From the sequence record MN158214.1: a stretch of 50,853 nucleotides of DNA. One strand, given 5' to 3'. The notes beneath the pieces are model-generated. The model was not told where the DNA came from. It was given only the letters and a program-made list of their open reading frames with translations, and searched no databases. A program made the position numbers and the translations under genes. Below are positions 5,524 to 49,571 of the stretch, piece by piece. This DNA comes from Escherichia phage BEBK14. Every line of letters begins with the position of its first letter. Within the stretch, counting starts at the first letter, position 1.

Positions 5524-5581
5524 AACTGTCTCTTTTAATAAGCCATTAGGCGTGTATAATACACACGTTCAAAAGCTATTT

Positions 5582-5598
5582 TTAACAAAAAGTGCTAT
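5582..5598 (-). promoter_or_regulatory. 17-bp box copy in divergent region
   Basis: TATTAT ~21 bp downstream toward helicase; opposite face abuts RBS/ATG of 5609 gene. Confidence 0.45.
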
Positions 5599-5608
5599 GA
5601 GGTGCAAA

Positions 5609-6085
5609 ATGAAAGAAAAGCGAATCGCGGCCTATACTGGTGAGATTGACAAGAGAACATTGAACGGCAACAACGGAACGCGACGCGGCAAGGACAAGAA
5701 GCCACGCAAGCCGCGCACCGGATATTACATACTGAAAGAAGAAGTAAAAGCCGGACTGACCGCTCGCCTTGATATTCTTCTGGAGTATTTCGGAGGTGTG
5801 GCAAATATGGCTCGTCGATTGGGAGTATCCCAGCAAACTGTAAATATGTGGCGCAAGCGCGGGATGATTTCAGCGATGGGCGCACAACGCGTGCATAATG
5901 ACTACAAATATAATGGCTGTAAAGGCTATCGCGCATCATTCTGTCGCCCGGATCTAAAATTCGACTCAAACGGTAAGCCGCTTGTTACACGTTGCGAACG
6001 TCGTGAGATGTTGCGAGTGGTAACGATGCGCGATTATGAACCTGGCGGAATATTTTACAAAGAACCAAAAAGCACAAATAGCTAA
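5609..6085 (+). CDS. HTH DNA-binding protein (putative transcriptional regulator)
   Basis: ATG 5609 follows box copy and GAGGTG RBS; HTH-like segment GVANMARRLGVSQQTVNMWRKRG. Confidence 0.5.
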   Translation: MKEKRIAAYTGEIDKRTLNGNNGTRRGKDKKPRKPRTGYYILKEEVKAGLTARLDILLEYFGGVANMARRLGVSQQTVNMWRKRGMISAMGAQRVHNDYKYNGCKGYRASFCRPDLKFDSNGKPLVTRCERREMLRVVTMRDYEPGGIFYKEPKSTNS

Positions 6086-6142
6086 AGTTAATTGCCTGGC
6101 GTGGTTTATCATTGCCAGGCTTTTTCTTGTATGAGGTTTACA

Positions 6143-7054
6143 ATGCACTACGACAAAGACGAAGTTTTACCGCGTATGCTTGGAATGTGGCAAACTGCAT
6201 TAATGAAACTATGCAATGCGCCTCAATCTTTCTTTAATGGCAAGCATCAACCGTGCCTGTATTGTGGTGGCAAAGATCGCGCTCGTTGGACTAACCAACT
6301 CGCAAAGAAAGGTGATGGCGGCAATATCTGCAACGTATGCGGTAACGATAGCGGGATCGGGTTGTTTATGCGATTGCGCGGGGAAAGCTATAGCGAAGCA
6401 ATTAACACGCTGGGCGACTGGCTCAATCTCGTTCCGGTCGAAGTGGTGGCAAAGGCTAACAAGATAGCGTCGCGCTCGTCAGGCTACAATTTCGGGAAGC
6501 AGGCCAGCCATGAATGCTGTGAAAGAGTAATGGCAAAGACGCTTAAATTTGATCGCACTCCTTTAAGCGTATTTGAAGGAATCTACCCGCCTGATGATGG
6601 TCATTACGATTGCGGCGTTAAGGATGGGCGATACATTCACGCGCTTCCGTGCCGACTTGTTCACGAAGACGGCGTGGATGATGAGATGTGCAATATTCTC
6701 TTTATCACCGAGGAAGGCGATAAATCATTTCTGGCAAAGGATTACACGCGCGGATCGGTTGTTGTAACTGGTAGCACAGATAAGACGATCTATTTGTGCA
6801 CTGACTGGGTAAATGCTCAGCATGTGCACCTTGCGACGGGGCAAGAAGTATGGACGTGCTACAATAACTACAATCTTGAGATGGTTGCCCACAGATACAA
6901 AGGAAATCGAAAGATGCGCGTCGTATGCCATAAAGATGATCGGGATGTAATAATCGCCGCCGATGAAAGAAACCTTGATGTTATGCTGCCGATTGGTGGA
7001 AACTTCAAAAATGGCATTGAGAAAAAACTTTACAAGCCTGAATCGCTTTTATAA
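6143..7054 (+). CDS. DNA primase (primase Zn-ribbon + Toprim-like)
   Basis: PCLYCGGKDRARWT...CNVCGN zinc ribbon typical of P4/T7-type primases; downstream acidic Toprim-like motifs; GAGG RBS before ATG 6143. Confidence 0.6.
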   Translation: MHYDKDEVLPRMLGMWQTALMKLCNAPQSFFNGKHQPCLYCGGKDRARWTNQLAKKGDGGNICNVCGNDSGIGLFMRLRGESYSEAINTLGDWLNLVPVEVVAKANKIASRSSGYNFGKQASHECCERVMAKTLKFDRTPLSVFEGIYPPDDGHYDCGVKDGRYIHALPCRLVHEDGVDDEMCNILFITEEGDKSFLAKDYTRGSVVVTGSTDKTIYLCTDWVNAQHVHLATGQEVWTCYNNYNLEMVAHRYKGNRKMRVVCHKDDRDVIIAADERNLDVMLPIGGNFKNGIEKKLYKPESLL

Positions 7055-7183: not shown

Positions 7184-9145
7184 ATGGCAATTTATCGCAA
7201 AGGTCAAGCGTCAATGGACGCTCAAGGCTATATAACTGGCTACGGGACGAACTGGCGTGAGCAGTTAACGCTGATCCGTTCCGGCGCAACCATTATTTTT
7301 CTGACTCAGCCGCTACAGGCCGCAGTTATCACCGAAGTGGTCAACGATACTAGCATTCGAGCAATCACCACTGGTGGTGCTGTTGTTCCCCGTTCAGACT
7401 ACATAATCTTGCTTCATGACTCGTTAACTGTTGATGGCCTGGCGCAAGACGTAGCGGAAACATTGCGCTACTACATGGGGAAAGAGTCGGAGCTTGCTGG
7501 ATTTATTGAGATCATCAAGGATTTTGATTGGGATAAGTTACAGAAGATCCAAGAAGACGTAAAGACAAATGCTGACGCAGCAGCAGCAAGCCAGCAGGCA
7601 GCTAAAACCAGCGAGAATAACGCGAAGACAAGCGCAACAAATGCAGCGAATAGCAAGAAAGGCGCTGATACTGCAAAGGCTGCCGCTGAATCCGCGCGCG
7701 ACGCTGCAAACACTGCAAAGACTGGCGCTGAAGCAGCAAAGTCTGGCGCTGAATCCGCGCGTGACGCTGCGAACACTGCAAAGGCAGGAGCTGAAAGTGC
7801 GCGAGATCAAGCGGAGGAATACGCAAAGCAGGCCGCAGAACCTTACAAGGACTTATTGCAACCGTTGCCGGACGTGTGGATACCATTTAATGATTCCCTG
7901 GATATGATTACCGGATTCTCGCCGTCATACAAAAAGATTGTCATAGGTGATGATGAGATCACGATGCCAGGTGACAAGATTGTTAAGTTTAAACGTGCAT
8001 CAACCGCTACTTACATTAACAAATCAGGTGTTTTTACAGTTGCAGCAATTGATGAACCACGTTTTGAAAGAGATGGATTGCTGATTGAAGGGCAGAGAAC
8101 AAACCATATGATTAATGCTTCAACTCCTGCTGGTTGGGGTCGCTCAGCTTCTGTGCAAGTGACAGCGAATACAGATTCATTTGGATTTCTTTATGGTCGC
8201 TTCGCTCCAGATCAGTCTACTGTTGGCAAAACAGATGCGCTAAACCTTGCATCTGTTATTTCTAATCACAGCCTTGATACATCTGGCAATGAAAAAAATG
8301 TTACTGCTTCATGCAGATTTAGATCAGATAAAGATGTTAGATTGAGGGTAAGATTTGCCGCTGGCGATGATATTGGTAGTATAGCATTCGCTGGAGATGC
8401 TTACATAAAACTTAAAGATCTTTCAGTTCAAAAAACTGGAGGTGCTGCAAACAGAATTAATGTTGAGGTTTACACTGATGATCTTGCTGGATGGAATATT
8501 GCAATTGTTACATTCCAGGCAATAAAAAATAAGGTAAACGCTCAGTTTCAAATATCTCCAGTCTCTGCTTATGCCGAAGGTGATTATCTTGAATTGTCAA
8601 CCCCTCAAGTTGAATTGGGATCTGGTGCTTCTTCTTATATTCAATCAGGTACGACACCAGCCACAAGGGCAAGCGATATGGTTACAGTGCCAATAAAAAA
8701 CAACCTTTACAATTTGCCGTTTACAGTTCTTGTGGAGGCTCATAAAAACTGGAGTAGAACGCCAAATGCTGCGCCTCGTGTTTTCGATACTGGAGGTCAT
8801 CAATCTGGTGCGGGAATTATTCTTGCTTTCGGGTCTGCCGAAGGCGATGCTGATGGATTCCCTTATTGCGATATAGGTAAATCAAACAGAAGGGTTAACG
8901 AGAATGCGAAACTAAAAAAGATGATCATAGGAATGAGAGTAAAGAGTGATTACAATACTTGTTGTGTAAGTAATGCCAGAATATCAAGCGAAACAAAAAC
9001 GGAATGGAGATATATAGTATCAACGGCTACTATAAGGATTGGCGGACAAACAAGTACAGGCGAACGCCATCTTTTCGGGCACGTTAGAAACTTCCGTATA
9101 TGGCACAAGGCGCTAACAGATCATCAATTGGGGGAAATTGTTTAA
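7184..9145 (+). CDS. tail fibre protein
   Basis: Ala/Lys-rich coiled-coil repeats (AESARDAANTAK x2) followed by large beta-rich C-terminal domain. Confidence 0.55.
   Translation: MAIYRKGQASMDAQGYITGYGTNWREQLTLIRSGATIIFLTQPLQAAVITEVVNDTSIRAITTGGAVVPRSDYIILLHDSLTVDGLAQDVAETLRYYMGKESELAGFIEIIKDFDWDKLQKIQEDVKTNADAAAASQQAAKTSENNAKTSATNAANSKKGADTAKAAAESARDAANTAKTGAEAAKSGAESARDAANTAKAGAESARDQAEEYAKQAAEPYKDLLQPLPDVWIPFNDSLDMITGFSPSYKKIVIGDDEITMPGDKIVKFKRASTATYINKSGVFTVAAIDEPRFERDGLLIEGQRTNHMINASTPAGWGRSASVQVTANTDSFGFLYGRFAPDQSTVGKTDALNLASVISNHSLDTSGNEKNVTASCRFRSDKDVRLRVRFAAGDDIGSIAFAGDAYIKLKDLSVQKTGGAANRINVEVYTDDLAGWNIAIVTFQAIKNKVNAQFQISPVSAYAEGDYLELSTPQVELGSGASSYIQSGTTPATRASDMVTVPIKNNLYNLPFTVLVEAHKNWSRTPNAAPRVFDTGGHQSGAGIILAFGSAEGDADGFPYCDIGKSNRRVNENAKLKKMIIGMRVKSDYNTCCVSNARISSETKTEWRYIVSTATIRIGGQTSTGERHLFGHVRNFRIWHKALTDHQLGEIV
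7685..7783. repeat. 63-bp period direct repeat inside tail-fibre gene
   Basis: GCTGAATCCGCGCG(C/T)GACGCTGC(A/G)AACACTGCAAAG at 7685..7720 and 7748..7783. Confidence 0.7.
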
Positions 9146-11381: not shown

Positions 11382-12443
11382 TTAAATCAGATACTGCTTG
11401 AACTGTCGGCGCACAAATTCAGGCGTATCCAAGCAAACTTCCGGCTCACCGTTTGCATACGCAGGCCATACGTCATGATGCTGGCACATAGCAAACTGTT
11501 GGATCACGCTAACATACTGGACTCGGCCTATCTTCAATTGCTCGCTGTTCATGCGGAAAGCCAACGGCAAATAAGGCTCTTTCTTCTCCTGGGCTAACAG
11601 GCGCATAACTACAGGGCGCTTCTCGTCTGGATATGCCTTCCTGAATAAATCATGTTGCAGCGCCATTTTCAGATAATAGCCGTGGTTGTAAGCCAGTCGC
11701 ATAAACTCCATCGGATTTGCGCTCATTGTGGTTTTGTAGTCAGTTATAACAACCGCTTCTGGATAGATAATATCGCGGCAAATTGGCTGACCTTTTTCGT
11801 CATAACCATCAATTAGCGTGGCGGTGACGTTTTTCACTACGTCAACGTGATCACATCGAACTTTAACTTTTACGCCGTTGATTTCGCCGAATAACGACAA
11901 TTCACGCTGTGCCGTCGGGCTGTTCATGCAGGCGTTATGTTCCGGTATGGATTCCAGAACCTGGCGCATTGCCACGCAAGCATCGTAATCTTTCGCGTCG
12001 ATTAACTGTACGCCGTCGGCTCTGGCCTGGCTTTCTGCGATCATGTCGATTAACCACATGATGTTAAGGTCTTCGCCACAATCAACCATCATTTTGATAA
12101 GGTCGGGGTAAGCCTTTCCGCTTGTCCCTTTCAGGCCAAAAGATTTCAGCTTTGCAGCCAATGCCGTTTGGCTTGTGATCAACTCTTTGAAGTCTTCCGG
12201 CGCTGGCGCACGGCGGTAAGTTTTATCAAATAGCTCCTTGCTTTCGAAGTTGGTATGCGACTGCGTACCGAAAACGAGCGCCTTGCTCTTATCGTCGCGC
12301 GGCTTGAACTTCCACGCAGCAGGGCAAGTGCTGTAAATCTCTGCCAGACTTGAACCGCTAACATATTCAGCCGTCCATGCTTCTGGATCGTGATAAAGCT
12401 CGTTGCTCATTTCTGCGCTGGTGTAAGCCATAAATTTATTCAT
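11382..12443 (-). CDS. putative recombination exonuclease
   Basis: 353-aa ORF in recombination module next to Erf; GAGGG RBS; family assignment is inferred from context. Confidence 0.4.
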   Translation of the reverse strand: MNKFMAYTSAEMSNELYHDPEAWTAEYVSGSSLAEIYSTCPAAWKFKPRDDKSKALVFGTQSHTNFESKELFDKTYRRAPAPEDFKELITSQTALAAKLKSFGLKGTSGKAYPDLIKMMVDCGEDLNIMWLIDMIAESQARADGVQLIDAKDYDACVAMRQVLESIPEHNACMNSPTAQRELSLFGEINGVKVKVRCDHVDVVKNVTATLIDGYDEKGQPICRDIIYPEAVVITDYKTTMSANPMEFMRLAYNHGYYLKMALQHDLFRKAYPDEKRPVVMRLLAQEKKEPYLPLAFRMNSEQLKIGRVQYVSVIQQFAMCQHHDVWPAYANGEPEVCLDTPEFVRRQFKQYLI

Positions 12444-12560
12444 GATTAGCCCTCATTGGTTGGTATGCCTGCATTTTAGCTATTTGATGCGTTTAGTCAA
12501 TAGGTGATTTGTTTTTTCTGTTTTCTAAACGCTTCTTTTGGGCTTAAGAACAAAATCTGA

Positions 12561-12790
12561 TTATAAGTGATTGAATATCAGGTTGTTATTTTTCTGTTCT
12601 CGCGTTCGCGTATCTGCTCAGCTTTATACATACATATGCAATACACAGTGAGCATCTGTAATTACATAAATCAATACACTCACCAAACATGCTACACACC
12701 ACAACCCAATGAAACACAGAGAACAAATAAAAACAAATATAGATACATAGATAAATAAACTCTTTATTTTTTATGTATATAGATGATTTT
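12561..12790. other. AT-rich divergent control region A with GTTCGCG repeats and poly-purine/AT block
   Basis: no ORFs; TTATAAGTG...GTTATTTT...GTTCTCGCGTTCGCG and ATACATAGATAAATAAACTCTTTATTTT blocks homologous to 43022..43350. Confidence 0.55.
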
Positions 12791-12880
12791 ACTGTCTATT
12801 GTTTGTCCAATTTGTGTTTAAGTTTTGCGCTAAAATTAAGGAGGTGTGAATTTGATAACAAGCGAGAACAGAAAAAACAA

Positions 12881-12897
12881 ATAGCACTTTTTGCTAA
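12881..12897 (+). promoter_or_regulatory. 17-bp box copy (variant TTGCTAA)
   Basis: TATAGT at 12918..12923, 20 bp downstream; precedes lipoprotein gene. Confidence 0.5.
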
Positions 12898-12954
12898 ACT
12901 CGATGTTCAAGATCTTGTATAGTTGGAAACAACAACAACTAAGGAGATACAAAG

Positions 12955-13224
12955 ATGAAAAAATTAATCGCAGTTATCGCCACCGTAGCCGCTCTGACCG
13001 GATGCGCAGCGTCGCCTACTGGCAGCTTCAAAAAGATCGATTGCACGGCAAAATTTAACGTTAAAACATTCCCTGTTAACGGATTCCATGAAGTCAAAAT
13101 TAATGCAGTACGCGAAAACAGATTCAGCCAAAAGCAATACAGGTTGAGCGTTGACAATAAAGAAGTTAAATTTATCAACCGCTGGCAAAATGAAAGTAAA
13201 TTTATTGATTTGAGGTGTAATTAA
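12955..13224 (+). CDS. lipoprotein, possible Cor-like superinfection exclusion protein
   Basis: signal peptide + lipobox LTGC; 89 aa; sits beside tail-fibre/J region as cor does in T1-like phages. Confidence 0.45.
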   Translation: MKKLIAVIATVAALTGCAASPTGSFKKIDCTAKFNVKTFPVNGFHEVKINAVRENRFSQKQYRLSVDNKEVKFINRWQNESKFIDLRCN

Positions 13225-13502
13225 TGGCGCAATATGGTTATGCAATATATGACGATCGAGGAAGGGAAGTTACAGGACTTTTAACGCCTGTTTTCTTTCT
13301 TGATAAATTCACTCAGCCATCAGGTAGCAAGACTTACCAAAACAGGCCGCCAGGTAAATCATTGAAAGCAATATATGTTGGCATGAATTCCTGGCGTGGT
13401 GGCGACCCTGGCGCACCAAACTTATCGGTAAGTGGCGACACCGTTACATGGAGTGGGCTTTCTGGATCTGATTCAAGATATATATATACTTTTTGGGGGT
13501 GA
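13224..13502 (+). CDS. hypothetical protein
   Basis: ORF translationally coupled to neighbours (ATGG/TGATG overlaps). Confidence 0.4.
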   Translation: MAQYGYAIYDDRGREVTGLLTPVFFLDKFTQPSGSKTYQNRPPGKSLKAIYVGMNSWRGGDPGAPNLSVSGDTVTWSGLSGSDSRYIYTFWG

Positions 13503-14119
13503 TGATGTACGGGATGAGCATAAAAAAATCAGACGGATCATTATGGTTAAGCCCAGATTTCACTCCGGTTAATCTAATTGATCGGGCAGTTATATCTGCT
13601 AATACCGGAACAGTTTTTACTTCGTCAATTCCTATTGATAGGGTGTGTTTTTTCTTTGTTAGATTGACTGCTAAATCATACATATCATTTACGCAATTTA
13701 ACAATGGAGGAAGACACGCAATAAGACTTGATAGATCTGATAATCAGGGGGATGTTATTGTTTATGCTTTTAGCAACATGGTTACGCCTCCTGGTAGTCA
13801 CGGGATAGCATTTTATAATGCTAGTGGTGAAATGGTTTATCATGGAAAAATGAGGCCTTTGGATGCAAAACTTGTATCTGTAAGCGGGATCGCGTTTGAT
13901 GTTAATTTGGGATACCCTTGCGCCATAATGCCATCACTGACAGCGTTAAACTCTGTTCCTAATCCGGCTTTAGGTGGATTCATGATATTTGAATCTCAGG
14001 CTGCTGCGTATGGCAACGGTGTATATTCTTTCTCTAGGCAAGTTGCACAAACTCCTGGCCCAGTTGGTATTTACACCGCTTCATCTGTTTTGGTTATAAA
14101 TACATCACACTATGATTAA
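13502..14119 (+). CDS. hypothetical protein (AT-rich, N-terminus paralogous to 13224..13502)
   Basis: ATG overlaps upstream TGA; ends at bidirectional terminator. Confidence 0.4.
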   Translation: MMYGMSIKKSDGSLWLSPDFTPVNLIDRAVISANTGTVFTSSIPIDRVCFFFVRLTAKSYISFTQFNNGGRHAIRLDRSDNQGDVIVYAFSNMVTPPGSHGIAFYNASGEMVYHGKMRPLDAKLVSVSGIAFDVNLGYPCAIMPSLTALNSVPNPALGGFMIFESQAAAYGNGVYSFSRQVAQTPGPVGIYTASSVLVINTSHYD

Positions 14120-14126
14120 AATTAAA

Positions 14127-14147
14127 GGGGGCTATGCCCCCTTTTTT
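14127..14147. terminator. bidirectional rho-independent terminator
   Basis: GGGGGCTATGCCCCC + T6, between convergent genes; overlaps J stop. Confidence 0.65.
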
Positions 14148-17100
14148 ACCAGCTTCCGGTAATCCTTCCGACTTCAACCCTCAATACTCCGTTTGCATCT
14201 TTTACCTTCAATCCCTCATTGGTGAATTTAGTAGCTCCTTCTCCTGGCGTTGATCCGTAATTCTCAAAGATTCCGTTTTTATCAAGCCTCCATCCTTGCT
14301 GGTTTTGAACAAAGTTGTTTGACTGAATAACATTACCAATCATCGCATTAGTGATTGATCCGTTCTTCACCAAAAGACTATTAATGAAAACCTGATTATT
14401 CTCAACCACGAAAGGCAAAGTGAAAGTCCCTCCAGTAGAGCTAGTCATAATGGCGAACCTGTTCGCATCAAACAAAACTTGCGAGATAAGACCGGATGAA
14501 CCCTGAGAAAGCTGCATTACCATGCCTGCGCTGTACTTCTGCCCCTTGTAAGTAAGACCCAATTTCATAGCGTACTTAGCGCCAACCGAATCAACGTTAG
14601 CCCACGAATCCAACTTTTCAACCAATGCAGATTCAACGTCGCCAAATCGTGCTGTTAATGCCTGATCGGCTTGTACTCGCGCCTCCTCTTCATTGGCGAT
14701 AGCTTGCCTTACTTCCGAAATGCTGGCCTCAACGTCAACCTTGATTGCATCATTGAGATCATTAATCTCTTTAGTAAATTTTGCATCAAGCTGTTGTACC
14801 GCTTGCGCTCGCGCTTCTGACTCGTTAGTGATTGTCTGCCTTACATCGCTAATGCTTGCAGAAGTATCCTTGCGCACACCGTCGATTTCTTTTGTGAATT
14901 TAGAATCAAGCTGCTGAATTTGAGTTGCTCGCGTCTCTGATTCAGTGGCGATTGCCTCCTGCACTGTCTTAATGCTTGATGTTATCTCGCCATCAATTGA
15001 AGCCCTCAATTCTTCGATTTGAGTTACTCGCGCCTCAGTCTCATTTGCGATCAACTGAACAGCATGACCATATTCAGCCTTTCGCTTTCCGTTCTGTACT
15101 CGCGTCCATTTCAAGTTAGCGTCAATCGCCAAAGCGTTCTGGATTATTGCCTGCGCCTGGTCTTTGATCTTGTTCGCGCTTTCGATGGCGTTCTCCTTGA
15201 TTTCTTGCCCTGCTTCGCTATCAAAAATCTTATCAAGAATATCTCCTAAAACAGATTCAACATCATCTGATGCCATGCCACGAACAAAATCAGTCCAGCT
15301 AGAAACGTTGCCGATTCTGTCAACGCTGCGGATTCTATACCAGACAACCTGACCCGCTGGTAGTGTACTGTGCCAGTATTCATATTGCGGGTATGGGATC
15401 AGCGTTAACAGGCTTGAGTTTTCAACCGTTCCGTCTGGCGACTGGTGAAGCTCAATGTAGGCCGTGTCTCCGCTTCCTTCTGGCATACCCCATTTAATAC
15501 GAATGCCGAAAACTTCATTATCTGATGCGGTTAAGTTAACTGGCGCGCCTGGCTCACCAACTTTACCAGTCAGGGATGCTGTTGCAATCTTCGACCATGC
15601 TGACGTACTGCCGGAAGCTGAAACAGATCTGACCCTTACTTGATAGTTCCCTGAATAAATCCCTTCTACTTCCGTCTCTTTGTTCGCTGTGCGCGGCGTA
15701 TTTAGCCAGTTGCCATCACCTTTTCGCCATTGCATTTCATACAGTGACGCATAAGGCACTTTATCCCACGACACAACCATCGTCTCAACGCTAACACCCT
15801 GGACAACACGGGAATATGACGACACCTGAACATTTTCCGGGGCTTGCATGATGTCCGGCTGCACGATTGAGATAGGACGATCATCAATGTTTACGCCATA
15901 ATCAATTTCGTCGTATTTGTTAGGATCGTATTCAACCGCCGTAATCGAGTAGGTAAATTCTTCCTCAGTGTCACCCTTGCTGATTCCTGTTACAACGTAC
16001 TGTTGCAACGCAAGGTCTGTTCGGTCGATTGCAAATACGGTGTCCGGTTTTACGTCGAATCCGAACCCTACGTTTAACTCAATGGTTTTTCCGTCCGCGC
16101 TGACTTTTGAGATTGTGCGCTTAACTGGTTTTCCGTCCGGTCTGTTGATGATAATGAAATCACCTGGTCTAGCGTCAATCTTAAACGGAACGAATACCTG
16201 CAATCCGGAAACTTCCATTACGCGACCTGATAGGTTGAGCGTTAAGTTGCTGCTCAGGAAGTTATCAGAAATCGCGATAACGTCACCGATAGATGGGATC
16301 ATCCCTTCCAGCCCGGTAGCAAAGTTTACCGTTTGGCTGCGCAGGTTGGTTTTCAGTATCCAGCGTCCGCGTCGATTCGCTTCGCTTCGACGGGTACAAC
16401 CAATCGCCGTGATACTTGTTGGATTGTAGCCAAAACGTAACGCCGCCTCAGTGTCAAATACGCCCTCAACGTCCTGTTGATACATGTTTTGCTCATCGTC
16501 AAACGTAACGTTGCATTGAGTGTACATGCTCTTTTCGCTGGCGCTCGTGTACTGAAAATCTCCATTAATTACGTTGTCGTTTGTAAAGATGTATGATGGC
16601 TCGCGCGGTTTATCCACCACTACAGACAAGCTCTCGCCATTCCAAAAAGTCATTCCTCGGAAGATTGAGCAAATGTCACGAATAAGCTGATAAGCCTCAA
16701 TCTGGCTTTGAATCACCATATCGCATAGGTAGCGCGGCTCTGTTCCTCCCTTGCCATCTGGAACCATCTGATCACAATACACCCCAGCCTCGTATAGACT
16801 CCACTTGTCGATCTGTATTCCCAATTCTCGTTGATCAAGTCCATAACGCTGATTAGTAACCAAATCGTAAAGAACCCATGCCGGATTATTTGACCACGCT
16901 TTTTTAAATGTTCCGTCCCATGTTCCAGAATACCGACGAGATACAGGATCGTAATTGCTGGGAACCTGAATCAACTTCCATTTCTTTTTAATTGAAATGT
17001 TAGGGATCTGGTTAGGGAACAGTTCGCTGTCAAACTCGACGTAAACAAGCCCAGTCAGTGGGTAACGGAATTTTGCATCAATTACCTCGGCGTAACTCTG

Positions 17101-17724
17101 AATGCGGATCAGATCTGTTACCTTAGACGTTGTGCTGTCAGGTGTAACACGGCGAACGCGAAGCAAAACACGCTCATTGAATTTCGGCAAGTCAATGCGT
17201 CGGCTACGGTCGTATCCGGTGCGCGTCTTGCCGTTAATGGTGTCGGTCATTACTTCTTTGTATGAATCACCATCAACCGCCATATCAACTGCATATGTAA
17301 CGGTAACGCCCACCAGGTCGCCGTTATCCTCCTGCTTAATACCCACTGGCATTAGCATTTTGATGCGTATTGCGGAAAGCGTCTTATTCGTTACCGACAA
17401 AACATATGGCGTATTTGTAGTCAAATCTCGATTGATGATCACCTCGTTTGACGTGTCAGTAAAACCCTGAATGTATTCCTGATCCTGCGTTCCTGGCCTA
17501 AACTCTGCTTTAACGCCTGGATAGTTTACAGTTCCATCGTCAGCGATAACCGGAACATCATCAAGATACAGATCACGTAATGAGAAATCCGCGTCACACT
17601 CACCATCGGATACGGCAAGCAGGATTTTAATTTTGTTTATTGAAATCAGGTTATCTTCAAGGTCTTTAGGCACGTAAGGTTTTTTCGACCCACCCTTACT
17701 GCCAGTTATAATATTTTTAGCCAT
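14146..17724 (-). CDS. central tail fibre / host specificity protein (lambda J-like)
   Basis: 1192 aa; N-terminus GSKGGSKKPYVPKDLEDNL resembles lambda gpJ start; C-terminal coiled-coil repeats. Confidence 0.8.
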   Translation of the reverse strand: MAKNIITGSKGGSKKPYVPKDLEDNLISINKIKILLAVSDGECDADFSLRDLYLDDVPVIADDGTVNYPGVKAEFRPGTQDQEYIQGFTDTSNEVIINRDLTTNTPYVLSVTNKTLSAIRIKMLMPVGIKQEDNGDLVGVTVTYAVDMAVDGDSYKEVMTDTINGKTRTGYDRSRRIDLPKFNERVLLRVRRVTPDSTTSKVTDLIRIQSYAEVIDAKFRYPLTGLVYVEFDSELFPNQIPNISIKKKWKLIQVPSNYDPVSRRYSGTWDGTFKKAWSNNPAWVLYDLVTNQRYGLDQRELGIQIDKWSLYEAGVYCDQMVPDGKGGTEPRYLCDMVIQSQIEAYQLIRDICSIFRGMTFWNGESLSVVVDKPREPSYIFTNDNVINGDFQYTSASEKSMYTQCNVTFDDEQNMYQQDVEGVFDTEAALRFGYNPTSITAIGCTRRSEANRRGRWILKTNLRSQTVNFATGLEGMIPSIGDVIAISDNFLSSNLTLNLSGRVMEVSGLQVFVPFKIDARPGDFIIINRPDGKPVKRTISKVSADGKTIELNVGFGFDVKPDTVFAIDRTDLALQQYVVTGISKGDTEEEFTYSITAVEYDPNKYDEIDYGVNIDDRPISIVQPDIMQAPENVQVSSYSRVVQGVSVETMVVSWDKVPYASLYEMQWRKGDGNWLNTPRTANKETEVEGIYSGNYQVRVRSVSASGSTSAWSKIATASLTGKVGEPGAPVNLTASDNEVFGIRIKWGMPEGSGDTAYIELHQSPDGTVENSSLLTLIPYPQYEYWHSTLPAGQVVWYRIRSVDRIGNVSSWTDFVRGMASDDVESVLGDILDKIFDSEAGQEIKENAIESANKIKDQAQAIIQNALAIDANLKWTRVQNGKRKAEYGHAVQLIANETEARVTQIEELRASIDGEITSSIKTVQEAIATESETRATQIQQLDSKFTKEIDGVRKDTSASISDVRQTITNESEARAQAVQQLDAKFTKEINDLNDAIKVDVEASISEVRQAIANEEEARVQADQALTARFGDVESALVEKLDSWANVDSVGAKYAMKLGLTYKGQKYSAGMVMQLSQGSSGLISQVLFDANRFAIMTSSTGGTFTLPFVVENNQVFINSLLVKNGSITNAMIGNVIQSNNFVQNQQGWRLDKNGIFENYGSTPGEGATKFTNEGLKVKDANGVLRVEVGRITGSW
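14690..15060. repeat. imperfect ~114-bp period repeats encoding C-terminal coiled coil of J-like protein
   Basis: repeated ESEARxQAxQQLDxKFTKEI segments in translation; repetitive shadow ORFs on opposite strand. Confidence 0.5.
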
Positions 17725-27700: not shown

Positions 27701-28543
27701 TTAAGTGCCTACTGTTTTCCTGAACACTATGTCAAACTGATCAGCAACTCCAGAACCGTCGTTTGCAGTCCAGTTAACATTAACATGACCACCTACTCCA
27801 GTAGGAACTACAAGACCAGTGCGACTAACGCTTGCAACCTTTGGATCTTGCTCGTTTGTAATCGTCCACTGCCCCGTTTTGTCGTCAGCCCATGTTGGAA
27901 CAACGGTTACTTTTAGCTGAACGTTGTCAATTGTTTCTGTTCCCTCTACATAACCATTTTCGGCCTCAATGATCGCACCAGTAAGAAGGTATTTTCTATG
28001 ATGAAGCGGCGTTATTCTGACTCCGACTATGTTCATTGTTTCATCAAACTTGTAAAAGTCACCAGTAAAAATCCAGCCATCGACGATTTCATCCCCATCA
28101 CTACTTGCTACAAAGCCATCATTGTTAACATAAACAAGATCGCCATGTTCAGGCGCAGACTCAATCGTTTGAGTTAAGCACCATACAACCCCTCTTGTTA
28201 AAATGTTGATAGAATCTCCTTCCTTATAGTCAGAGTATCCGTCTTCCTCGTTAACCGTTGTCGTGATATTGCTCCTTATGGCAACACCAGCAACCACAGC
28301 ATCACCCTCTTTGTGATCAACAAATATGTTGTAACCTTCAACTCTTTCTTTAAAGAAAACAACCTTTCCAGCAATGATGGATTCAGAACCGCAAACTCCA
28401 ACTCTTTCTTTAAAGAAAACAACCTTTCCAGCAATGATGGATTCAGAACCGCAAACTCCAGTGCCATCAATGTTGTAGCGAGTAGAATCAACCAGGCATC
28501 CAGGACAGGAAAGCCCCATAACAGATGAGTAATCTTTAGCCAT
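27701..28543 (-). CDS. structural (head decoration-like) protein with C-terminal Ig-like domain
   Basis: N-terminus paralogous to 28595..29104; Ig-like C-terminal segment; contains 60-bp tandem duplication. Confidence 0.5.
   Translation of the reverse strand: MAKDYSSVMGLSCPGCLVDSTRYNIDGTGVCGSESIIAGKVVFFKERVGVCGSESIIAGKVVFFKERVEGYNIFVDHKEGDAVVAGVAIRSNITTTVNEEDGYSDYKEGDSINILTRGVVWCLTQTIESAPEHGDLVYVNNDGFVASSDGDEIVDGWIFTGDFYKFDETMNIVGVRITPLHHRKYLLTGAIIEAENGYVEGTETIDNVQLKVTVVPTWADDKTGQWTITNEQDPKVASVSRTGLVVPTGVGGHVNVNWTANDGSGVADQFDIVFRKTVGT
28341..28460. repeat. perfect 60-bp tandem duplication (2 copies), in-frame within 27701..28543
   Basis: 28341..28400 identical to 28401..28460; duplicates 20 aa GVCGSESIIAGKVVFFKERV. 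Confidence 0.9.
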
Positions 28544-36780: not shown

Positions 36781-36837
36781 GTTCCGGCCTCCTCTGTTGT
36801 CGATGCGCATATAATACAAAACCAGCCGAAGCTGGTT

Positions 36838-36854
36838 TTAACAAAAAGTGCTAT
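36838..36854 (-). promoter_or_regulatory. 17-bp box copy
   Basis: contains TAG stop of 36851..37147; hairpin 36821..36836 then TATTAT 36811..36816. Confidence 0.5.
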
Positions 36855-43643: not shown

Positions 43644-43660
43644 ATAGCACTTTTTGTTAA
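43644..43660 (+). promoter_or_regulatory. 17-bp box copy
   Basis: TACATT 43682..43687, 21 bp downstream, then ACACACATCGAAAC; precedes first rightward early gene. Confidence 0.55.
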
Positions 43661-43722
43661 AACCGAATCATTCTGATCGGGTACATTACACACATCGAAA
43701 CAAACCGCTCAGGAGATAGCAA

Positions 43723-45950: not shown

Positions 45951-46655
45951 ATGTATAAAGGTTTAATATTCTCCCTATTTGATGGGTCTGGTAAAGCCGT
46001 TAAAGATTGGGCTGATAATGGCTATAAGTGCATTTGCTTTAATGCTGACGGTGGCGATCACGGTGATTACCAGTCAGTGCGCATAAAGCATGAGAATATC
46101 GAATATGTTAACGTCTGGATTGACGATGCTTTTTATGTTAAGGCAATAAATAATGAGTGGGGCAATCCTGATTTTATTATGGCCTTCCCACCATGCACTG
46201 ACCTTGCAAATAGCGGATCTCGCCATTGGGCTAAAAAACGCCTTGAGAATCCATCGTTCCAGGATGATGCCGCCGACACTTGCAGAATCGCGGCTGATAT
46301 AGCTGATTATTTCGGTGTTCCTTACATGATCGAAAATCCGGTTGGCAAGTTGTCAACGTTATGGCGAAAGCCTGATTATACGTTCCATCCGTGCGATTAC
46401 GCTGGCTATCTGCCGGAAGATGATAAGCATCCAGACTTCCCTGATATTATTCCGGCGCGTGATTGCTACTTTAAGAAAACATGCCTTTGGACTGGAAACG
46501 GCTTTATCGTTCCACAGAGAAAACTGGTATTGCCAACCGAGAAGGATAACCCAGGCTGGGCTAAAACTGGTGGCAAATCATCCAGAACAAAGATGATACG
46601 CTCCCTCACTCCGCGAGGATTTGCTCGCGCCGTATTTGAGGCAAACTCAAAATAG
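45951..46655 (+). CDS. putative DNA (cytosine-5) methyltransferase-like protein
   Basis: motif I-like FSLFDGSG, PC motif (PPCTDL), ENV-like (IENPVG); short for a complete C5-MTase. Confidence 0.45.
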   Translation: MYKGLIFSLFDGSGKAVKDWADNGYKCICFNADGGDHGDYQSVRIKHENIEYVNVWIDDAFYVKAINNEWGNPDFIMAFPPCTDLANSGSRHWAKKRLENPSFQDDAADTCRIAADIADYFGVPYMIENPVGKLSTLWRKPDYTFHPCDYAGYLPEDDKHPDFPDIIPARDCYFKKTCLWTGNGFIVPQRKLVLPTEKDNPGWAKTGGKSSRTKMIRSLTPRGFARAVFEANSK

Positions 46656-46668
46656 CACTTTTTGTTAA
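46652..46668 (+). promoter_or_regulatory. 17-bp box copy (extended form)
   Basis: contains TAG stop of MTase-like gene; hairpin 46672..46690, CATAAT, GTTTCAACGAAAAC. Confidence 0.55.
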
Positions 46669-46727
46669 AACGCCCGACCTTGAGTCGGGCATAATGCGTT
46701 TCAACGAAAACAACTGGAGAAAATCAA

Positions 46728-49378: not shown

Positions 49379-49499
49379 TGATTTCATTCATGCGTTACTT
49401 ACGCTGCTTTTATCGGATATGCGTGCCTTTGACACTTCCGAACACAATTTATGTGATGATGATGGTGTCTTGCTGGTTACGGTGAAGCGGATGGAATAG
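49305..49499 (+). CDS. hypothetical protein
   Basis: AGGAGA RBS; stop TAG inside box copy. Confidence 0.3.
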   Translation: MMNSLEQSLIDKILKFCAVNSISHDDFIHALLTLLLSDMRAFDTSEHNLCDDDGVLLVTVKRME

Positions 49500-49512
49500 C
49501 ACTTTTTGTTAA
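49496..49512 (+). promoter_or_regulatory. 17-bp box copy (extended form)
   Basis: contains TAG stop; hairpin 49516..49534, TATATT, GTTTCATCGAAACGAA. Confidence 0.55.
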
Positions 49513-49571
49513 AACGCCCGGCTTATAGTCGGGTATATTTGTTTCATCGAAACGAATATGAGGAAAACAAA

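Follow-up and report, generated by a model that had tools for sequence, protein, structure and literature searches.

Three genes between the central fibre gene and the recombination operon

Escherichia phage BEBK14 (sequence record MN158214.1; its 50,853 nucleotides (nt) are called the window here, and all positions are counted in it) carries a unit of three plus-strand genes beside the gene for its J-like central tail fibre: gene 1 codes for a small lipoprotein, gene 2 for a small protein and gene 3 for a predicted receptor-binding protein (RBP), with a promoter box in front and a terminator-like hairpin behind (Table 1). The unit sits directly downstream of the J-like gene, between J and the exo/recombination operon, as it does in all relatives, at the site that Maffei et al. 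2021 (PMC8594841) named the 'bona fide RBP locus'. From 12700 to 14400 the DNA is 100% identical to Escherichia phage Jahat_MG145 (MK552105.1; Drexlerviridae, Tempevirinae, Warwickvirus), whose GenBank record labels all three genes 'hypothetical protein', and some 65 further T1-like coliphages match it at 90-97% identity. An original prediction, made from the DNA letters alone, had read the unit as a candidate exclusion or host-range moron, composed of a lipoprotein that blocks FhuA and two AT-rich paralogous genes. The comparisons below lead us to another reading, which we consider highly probable: the modular host-recognition cassette, RBP plus exclusion protein, that T1-like siphophages carry downstream of J is present at 12881-14144 in its BtuB-specific allele.

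Table 1. Features of the locus and its neighbours, with the evidence for each; Bas04 to Bas07 are related phages with experimentally determined receptors
Feature	Position	Strand	Evidence
Promoter box ATAGCACTTTTTGCTAAA	12881..12898	+	Aligned box copies; both alleles in Bas04-07 keep it upstream of the lipoprotein gene
Gene 1, predicted outer-membrane lipoprotein of 89 amino acids, distant Cor-like exclusion candidate	12955..13224	+	Signal peptide, PHROG 1119, NCBIfam
Gene 2, small beta-rich protein of 92 amino acids, the 'Ig-like' protein of Matusiak et al., putative RBP partner or adaptor at the tail-fibre tip	13224..13502	+	PHROG 557
Gene 3, predicted terminal RBP of 204 amino acids, BtuB allele	13505..14119	+	PHROG 425 ('hand-like')
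Exchanged cassette (mature lipoprotein, small protein, RBP)	13009..14143	.	blastn break points against Bas05 and Bas07
Terminator-like hairpin AAAGGGGGC-TAT-GCCCCCTTT	14124..14144	.	T-runs on both sides, -15.8 kcal/mol, 9-bp stem
J-like central tail fibre gene, putative docking platform at its C-terminal tip	14146..17724	-	Conserved C-terminus

Family assignments place the three genes beside those of T1. Gene 1 falls into PHROG 1119 (Cor, E=1e-7), gene 2 into PHROG 557 (E=1.6e-20; residues 3-92 on positions 2-92 of a 100-position profile) and gene 3 into PHROG 425 (E=2.3e-50; residues 1-205 on positions 2-224 of 224), the same families that hold T1 Cor, gp32 and gp31, whose genes lie directly after the J-like gene 33 of that phage. 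On PHROG 425, T1 gp31 scores 9e-68 and the homologue from the Shiga toxin (Stx) podophage TL-2011c scores 4e-81. The homology search that the original prediction had proposed for the two downstream open reading frames (ORFs) thus ended in PHROG 557 and 425 and in the BtuB phages Bas04 and Bas06, while searches of Pfam, NCBIfam and the PDB sequences with genes 2 and 3 gave no match.

Gene 3 codes for 204 amino acids (aa) if translated from 13505 and for 205 if from 13502; the former is probably the start, because all homologues begin MYG and GenBank annotates 13505. Overlapping stop and start codons (TAATG, TGATG) link genes 1-3. The AlphaFold2 (AF2) model of the gene 3 product, built on a 15-sequence alignment, has two beta domains (predicted local distance difference test (pLDDT) 87, predicted template modelling score (pTM) 0.82), and the modelled fold matches a solved, experimentally proven RBP from this locus. 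Matusiak et al. 2025 (PMC12309495) describe PHROG 425 as 'hand-like' proteins capping tail spikes without Ig domains, and a cryo-electron microscopy preprint on the Stx phage phi24B (bioRxiv 10.64898/2026.04.10.717836) reports gp54 (204 aa) in the virion proteome together with low-resolution extra density at the needle tip. The C-terminus ...(I/V)(N/K)T..YD of the RBP is kept across alleles.

PHROG 557 goes by the name 'outer membrane protein' and PHROG 425 by 'membrane associated protein' in RefSeq and PHROG (the latter in the category 'moron'), names that are widespread in about 290 phage records. For genes 2 and 3 such labels are unsupported, because neither product has a signal peptide or transmembrane segment (maximum 19-residue hydropathy 0.55 and 1.36, respectively). 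The proteins of both families appear to be tail-tip components rather than membrane proteins, and the products of genes 2 and 3 are probably the small partner and the terminal RBP, virion components that are presumably essential.

The two genes had been described as paralogues sharing an N-terminal YG motif. The motif itself stands: gene 2 begins MAQYGYAIYDDRG and gene 3 M(M)YGMSIKKSDG, and since [YF]G..[IFL]...G occurs at about 1e-4 per residue (1 in 10,000) in the six-frame translation and is kept in the alleles of BtuB, FhuA and Stx phages, two adjacent N-terminal copies are not due to chance. The paralogy had to be given up at the level of whole proteins. BLASTP gives E=1.7, and hhalign of the family profiles, whether run locally, globally or with each half of gene 3 as target, recovers the 15-residue motif only, at a probability of 5-9%. 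There are three copies of the wider hairpin motif [YFH]G-x-x-[IF]-x(3-5)-G, at residues 4-13 of the gene 2 product and at about 3-13 and 100-112 of the RBP, and these look like the starts of three beta domains. In several proteins that join both families in one chain (see below), the small-protein profile reaches about 50 residues into the first domain of the RBP, although the match is weak, and a distant domain duplication between gene 2 and that domain is possible.

The gene 1 product (89 aa, beginning MKKLIAVIATVAALTGC) is the only one of the three with a hydrophobic N-terminus, and its LTGC lipobox at residues 14-17 confirms the small lipoprotein recognized earlier. An alanine follows the lipidated cysteine, and under the +2 rule an alanine at this position goes with sorting to the outer membrane; the residue suggests that gene 1 encodes an outer-membrane lipoprotein. 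Its cysteines, at 17, 30 and 88, compare with 17, 25 and 73 in the Cor proteins of T1, Bas05 and Bas07, that is, the lipid-bearing cysteine plus one near each end of the mature protein.

Allele, receptor and cassette boundaries

Which receptor does this locus address? Maffei et al. 2021 (PMC8594841) proposed that dedicated RBPs sit non-covalently on J and are encoded with cognate exclusion proteins, with one allele per terminal receptor. [quoted passage not shown] We fetched the loci of phages whose terminal receptors had been determined by experiment (BASEL S5 table in Maffei et al. 2021, PMC8594841: BtuB for Bas04 and Bas06; FhuA for Bas05, Bas07 and T1) and compared them with the window proteins. 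To the BtuB phage Bas04 FritzSarasin (Warwickvirus) the RBP is 96% identical and the small protein and lipoprotein 98% each (90.8% nt identity over the locus); for the BtuB phage Bas06 KarlJaspers (Hanrivervirus) the values are 63%, 72% and 55%. With both, the proteins fall inside the limits that the preprint sets for membership of one family (>30% identity, >99% coverage). By contrast, identity of the RBP and small protein to those of the FhuA phages Bas05 (Warwickvirus; 26% and 33%), Bas07 (Hanrivervirus; 22% and 32%) and T1 does not exceed 33%, and the lipoprotein can be aligned with theirs over the N-terminal ~21-34 residues only (~34 with Bas05 and Bas07), a stretch that goes no further than the signal peptide and the first mature residues. 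The allele therefore tracks the receptor and not the genus: Bas05 shares the genus and has the FhuA allele, while Bas06 belongs to another genus and has the BtuB allele.

Other phages point the same way. Phage Arnold, for which transposon-directed insertion-site sequencing (TraDIS) and a knock-out show that BtuB is needed, is 97% identical to G3B1, which carries the locus of the window at 93%; those JLBYU Warwickviruses that have the locus do not depend on FhuA; and the Dhillonvirus PTXU06, listed as BtuB-dependent, has an RBP 60% identical to the gene 3 product. For BEBK14 and Jahat_MG145 themselves, we infer from these relatives that the receptor is BtuB and not FhuA. The assumption of FhuA is wrong, because the phages sharing the allele are BtuB-dependent and FhuA phages carry another one. 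Since the cognate phages use BtuB, the exclusion test against FhuA-dependent phages that had been suggested would probably be negative without refuting exclusion as such. The locus is an ordinary member of an already published kind, near-identical to that of the characterised Bas04.

Comparison with the FhuA phages also marks out what has been exchanged. Against Bas05, blastn aligns the window up to 13008 at 93.5% identity, a stretch that runs from the exo operon across the 511-nt intergenic region into gene 1, of which it takes in the first 54 nt; nothing matches over 13009-14143, and identity resumes at 82.8% from 14144 through J. Bas07 gives the same two break points. The first, 13008, is the end of the lipoprotein signal peptide, the second, 14144, is where the terminator meets the stop codon of J, and the block swapped between them measures 1.1 kb. 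The homology arms for block exchange thus appear to be the stretch coding for the signal peptide and J's 3' end. Gene order differs as well: the FhuA allele reads J> small> RBP> <cor and the BtuB allele J> <RBP <small <lipoprotein, with the lipoprotein gene behind the same box promoter in both.

Horizontal acquisition, as suggested earlier, is borne out by this block exchange and its sharp homology breaks together with a lowered GC content. The genome has 45.7% GC and the J gene 45.9%, against 40.5% for the whole unit (3.5th percentile of windows of the same size), 39.3% for gene 1 (6th percentile), 44.1% for gene 2 (34th percentile) and 39.3% for gene 3 (2.5th percentile). The description of two AT-rich genes consequently holds for gene 3 and fails for gene 2. 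GC content at third codon positions (GC3) is 0.29 in gene 3 and 0.47 in J, so the proposed check of composition and codon usage does reveal a shift, albeit a modest one: the AT-richness of the unit, gene 2 excepted, is real yet small, and AT content peaks outside the genes, in the intergenic region upstream of them (12444-12954, 32.3% GC).

Is the unit then a moron? It has its own promoter, a terminator and a deviant composition, as a moron should. Dispensability, by inference, does not extend to genes 2 and 3, which would be the sole source of the terminal RBP in a virulent phage, and is plausible for the lipoprotein alone. The earlier label of an exclusion or host-range moron is therefore apt insofar as the unit bears on host range, but misleading for genes 2 and 3, which are a predicted RBP and its partner rather than accessory cargo.

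The unit had also been described as bracketed by a box copy and a bidirectional terminator, and both elements are there. The 18-nt box ATAGCACTTTTTGTTAAA occurs in 16 copies on both strands of the genome, where 0.12 would be expected (e.g. 2025-2042, 5581-5598, 12881-12898, 36837-36854, 43644-43661, 46652-46669 and 49496-49513). Nearly all copies are followed about 21 nt downstream by a -10-like hexamer and mostly then, on the same strand, by Shine-Dalgarno sequence and start codon. Because these elements recur after the copies, the box looks like the upstream half of a promoter that this phage uses as standard. The copy facing gene 1, at 12881-12898, is followed by the -10-like TATAGT (12918-12923) and the ribosome-binding site AAGGAG (12941-12946). 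A scan for the sigma-70 consensus made no plus-strand call at this promoter, and its reading as a promoter rests on the alignment of the 16 copies. Several copies have a GC-rich hairpin between box and -10 element, and T1 also has many copies of the box.

At the other end, bidirectionality is less secure than the bracketing itself. The fold of the hairpin has a z-score of -1.8 against shuffled sequences, 11 of 200 of which fold equally well, and a consensus terminator scan flagged its minus strand only and not its plus strand. Apparently it is a bidirectional terminator for the convergent gene 3 and J, with modest support. An Rfam search of 12300-14300 found no credible match.

The divergent intergenic region between the exo and lipoprotein operons (32% GC) is flanked by the arms of a 19-nt inverted repeat, GAGAACAGAAAAAACAAAT, at 12507-12525 (minus strand) and 12864-12882 (plus strand). 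The arms differ by 1 mismatch, are unique in the genome and each abut a promoter-like site, and the exo-proximal one is kept in Bas04-07. The repeat may be an operator pair for divergent promoters.

On the J side, the last 80 aa of J are 81% identical between phages with the BtuB and the FhuA allele and 42% identical to the C-terminus of the Stx-phage needle, which fits a generic docking platform for the RBP at the C-terminal tip. Close to its C-terminus (14149-14170), J reads GRITG in the window, Bas04 and Bas06 and GRLTG in Bas05, Bas07 and T1, a comparison of six phages only; a k-mer result in bioRxiv 10.64898/2026.04.02.716166 agrees with such covariation of J tip and allele.

Two repeats lie elsewhere in the window: 28333-28452 holds two tandem 60-nt copies (97% identical) within a minus-strand ORF of the structural region, and 7655-7806 has 63-nt and 21-nt periodic repeats that give the lateral tail fibre protein an Ala-rich (AKxxAExARDAANTAK-like) segment.

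Proposed functions of the three products

The cassette would work as follows. The gene 3 product, a soluble two-domain beta protein, would dock non-covalently on the conserved tip of the trimeric J fibre and bind the extracellular face of the vitamin B12 transporter BtuB, leading to irreversible adsorption and DNA ejection. The gene 2 product, a putative small beta-sandwich, would be the physical partner of the RBP, as a tip subunit or an assembly adaptor. The gene 1 lipoprotein would be exported, lipidated and held in the inner leaflet of the outer membrane, where it would bind the periplasmic side of BtuB and close this receptor to phages of the same class, so that the cell is not superinfected and no progeny are lost on debris. 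Expression of the three genes, translationally coupled, would start at one of the 16 box promoters and end at the hairpin shared with J, and the cassette would move between phages as a block by recombination within the sequence for the signal peptide and within the 3' end of J.

How firmly does each product fit its part? For the lipoprotein, the link to Cor is the weakest. It shares with T1 cor its position, the promoter box and, at the nt level, the signal-peptide coding sequence, it has the lipobox plus two more cysteines beside RBP genes that mark the Cor family, and its match to PHROG 1119 is full-length, though weak beside the 3e-30 of T1 Cor. A Cor-type protein by position, as originally suggested, is what we find; a bona fide Cor it cannot be called, being under the curated cut-off (see below), with pairwise likeness to T1 Cor confined to the signal peptide. 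The KanT1 paper notes Cor-like proteins in BtuB Tempevirinae. Solved precedents exist in which a cognate lipoprotein blocks the receptor of its own phage from the periplasm, namely Llp-FhuA and Rtp45-LptDE. Because of the analogy with Llp and Rtp45 and the linkage to the BtuB-allele RBP, gene 1 is somewhat more probably than not a lipoprotein for BtuB-directed superinfection exclusion.

The case for gene 2 is built on its neighbours. A PHROG 557 gene always adjoins the RBP gene (T1, Bas04-07, Stx phages), here directly upstream of gene 3. A profile search of 1.84 billion representatives returned 160 RBP relatives, among them about 15 proteins of ~315 aa whose RBP part begins near residue 100; in at least 10 of these fused proteins the N-terminal ~80-95 residues are collinear with the small-protein profile, at 28 bits or less. 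Examples of such PHROG 557-425 fusions are P0183, P0128, P0113, P0105, P0125 and P0083, as well as a protein of Pantoea phage vB_PagS_Vid5 (MG948468.1, 20891-21868). Having the small domain joined to the RBP's N-terminal end in these homologues amounts to a Rosetta-stone link, an argument that the gene 2 and gene 3 products work within a single complex. According to the KanT1 paper, the small protein is missing from BtuB Tempevirinae; the match of gene 2 to PHROG 557 corrects this and indicates that it is present in the BtuB allele.

A number of observations weigh against the assignment of the unit to a BtuB cassette of this make-up. Dependence on BtuB was determined experimentally in relatives, and Jahat_MG145 is placed among them by homology; the interaction of BtuB with the RBP rests on AlphaFold3 models by others (bioRxiv 10.64898/2026.04.02.716166). 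In sequence, the RBP resembles its FhuA-allele counterpart weakly (E=0.006 to 1e-8), and it resembles the LptD RBP in structure only (16% identity, Foldseek TM 0.33). In the BtuB allele the RBP genes are transcribed together with the exclusion gene and point towards J, whereas in the FhuA allele they follow J, which makes the timing of their expression puzzling. Gene 1 reaches 18.6 bits (E=1.4e-3) on the NCBIfam Cor model NF047972, under the cut-off of 31, and once the signal peptide is removed hhalign against the Cor proteins of T1, Bas05 and Bas07 returns E=0.01 at a probability of 4%. For gene 2, the fold search gave generic beta-sandwich matches and no specific one, from a mediocre model (pLDDT 69), and its counterpart in phi24B, gp55, was not detected in virions (bioRxiv 10.64898/2026.04.10.717836).

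This last result leads to the most durable of the alternatives, which concerns the 92-aa protein alone. Instead of being a subunit of the RBP-bearing tip, it could form an alternative receptor-binding tip, giving two virion subpopulations or two receptors (hypothesis 1 of Matusiak et al.), or it could be an assembly chaperone absent from the virion, as the failure of proteomics to detect gp55 would allow. In AF2-multimer models by others, the spike tip could take either one, the small trimer or the hand-like protein (PMC12309495), and the small protein has a weak likeness in fold to lectin and fibre-tip sandwiches. That the small domain is fused to the RBP N-terminus, however, favours one complex over such alternatives, and the small protein is much more conserved than the RBP within the BtuB/Stx group (72% vs 63%; 52% vs 45%), which suits an adaptor or structural role more than contact with the receptor; we therefore regard this explanation as unlikely, if worth keeping in mind.

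Far less survives of the view that the unit is a moron in the strict sense, a FhuA-blocking Cor-type lipoprotein active against phages of the T1, T5 and phi80 type with two acquired, non-virion accessory paralogues. A lipoprotein at the T1 cor position with weak matches to Cor models, an own promoter and terminator and a lower GC content are all that such a unit would display. Yet the phages of this allele depend on BtuB, several being explicitly independent of FhuA, the mature lipoprotein bears no significant likeness to FhuA-type Cor, and the fold of gene 3 is that of a solved RBP with a Stx-phage relative found in virions. The phage would, moreover, be left without a terminal RBP, as its J C-terminus is of the generic docking type common to FhuA phages. 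Taken together, this makes the explanation very improbable. Equally improbable is a membrane exclusion system made up of all three proteins (Cor, an 'outer membrane protein' plus one called 'membrane associated protein'), which the PHROG names, the constant association with a cor-like gene, the single operon of the BtuB allele and a suggestion by the KanT1 authors might bring to mind, but genes 2 and 3 lack any signal peptide or transmembrane segment and bear names taken from unsupported legacy annotation, while Stx phages carry the pair directly after the needle gene without a Cor-like gene, the fold matches a solved RBP and gp54 is in the phi24B virion.

Returning to the BtuB-specific RBP and exclusion cassette, a broader relationship makes speculation enticing. 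The RBPs of this locus for FhuA (T1), BtuB (here), BamA (Stx podophages) and LptD (Oekolampad) might form one ancient 'hand-like' superfamily, with an N-terminal YG hairpin and a C-terminal ...YD plugging into the tip of J or the needle, accompanied by the PHROG 557 domain, sometimes fused, as a distant duplicate of the first RBP domain. We consider the arguments for and against this idea to be evenly balanced. If true, it would mean a universal plug-and-play tip adaptor across siphoviruses and podoviruses, with the nearest kin of the BtuB allele in Shiga toxin phages, and it would contradict bioRxiv 10.64898/2026.04.02.716166, in which the FhuA, BtuB, LptD and YncD families are called unrelated.

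The locus matters since it sets the outer-membrane receptor of a T1-like phage, and with it host range and the route to bacterial resistance; probably it also determines the competitors that an infected cell keeps out. Annotation gains names for three 'hypothetical proteins' of Jahat_MG145 and a predicted receptor, BtuB; for engineering, the boundaries at 13009-14143 supply homology arms for receptor swapping. What goes beyond the published literature that we found are small points: the exact junctions, the finding that the BtuB allele has a PHROG 557 gene, the small protein's fusions with the RBP and, from models, a possible structural link of the BtuB-, FhuA- and BamA-type RBPs to the LptD type.

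Comparison with known systems

Finally, we would set the unit beside the host-recognition loci already described. The BtuB locus of Bas04 and Bas06 has the same position, the same three genes, the same order and the same orientation, without any substantive difference. The FhuA-type cor cassette (gp32, gp31 and Cor of T1; N15, HK022, phi80, Bas05, Bas07) shares the PHROGs, the locus, the promoter box and the signal-peptide nt sequence, as well as the YG N-terminus and ...YD C-terminus of the RBP and the three-Cys pattern of the lipoprotein. It differs in its receptor, FhuA, in an RBP that is 22-26% identical and in mature lipoproteins that BLAST cannot align; there, the small and RBP genes run with J and converge on cor, whereas in the window all three genes lie on one strand and converge on J.

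The closest pair outside siphophages is found in the Stx podophage TL-2011c, whose small protein and RBP are 52% and 45% identical to those of the window. The two genes, at 5720-5998 (TTG start, unannotated in RefSeq) and 6004-6621, follow the needle gene and precede lom, and the needle's C-terminus is homologous to that of the window J. The Stx phages (Sepvirinae) differ in being podoviruses with BamA as the reported receptor and lom in place of a Cor-like lipoprotein, which they lack (PMC12309495; bioRxiv 10.64898/2026.04.10.717836). More distant is RBP_Oeko of Bas18, solved in complex with LptDE and accompanied by the exclusion lipoprotein Rtp45 (PDB 9rpt; bioRxiv 10.1101/2025.07.07.663478), at 16% identity and 254 vs 204 aa, whose receptor LptD is not a TonB-dependent transporter. 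The T5 pb5/Llp and BF23-type BtuB systems of the Demerecviridae, in which a monomeric RBP on a straight fibre targets a TonB-dependent transporter and is paired with a small lipoprotein blocking that transporter from the periplasm, are functional analogues and, by their description in the literature, have an RBP of another fold family at another genomic position.

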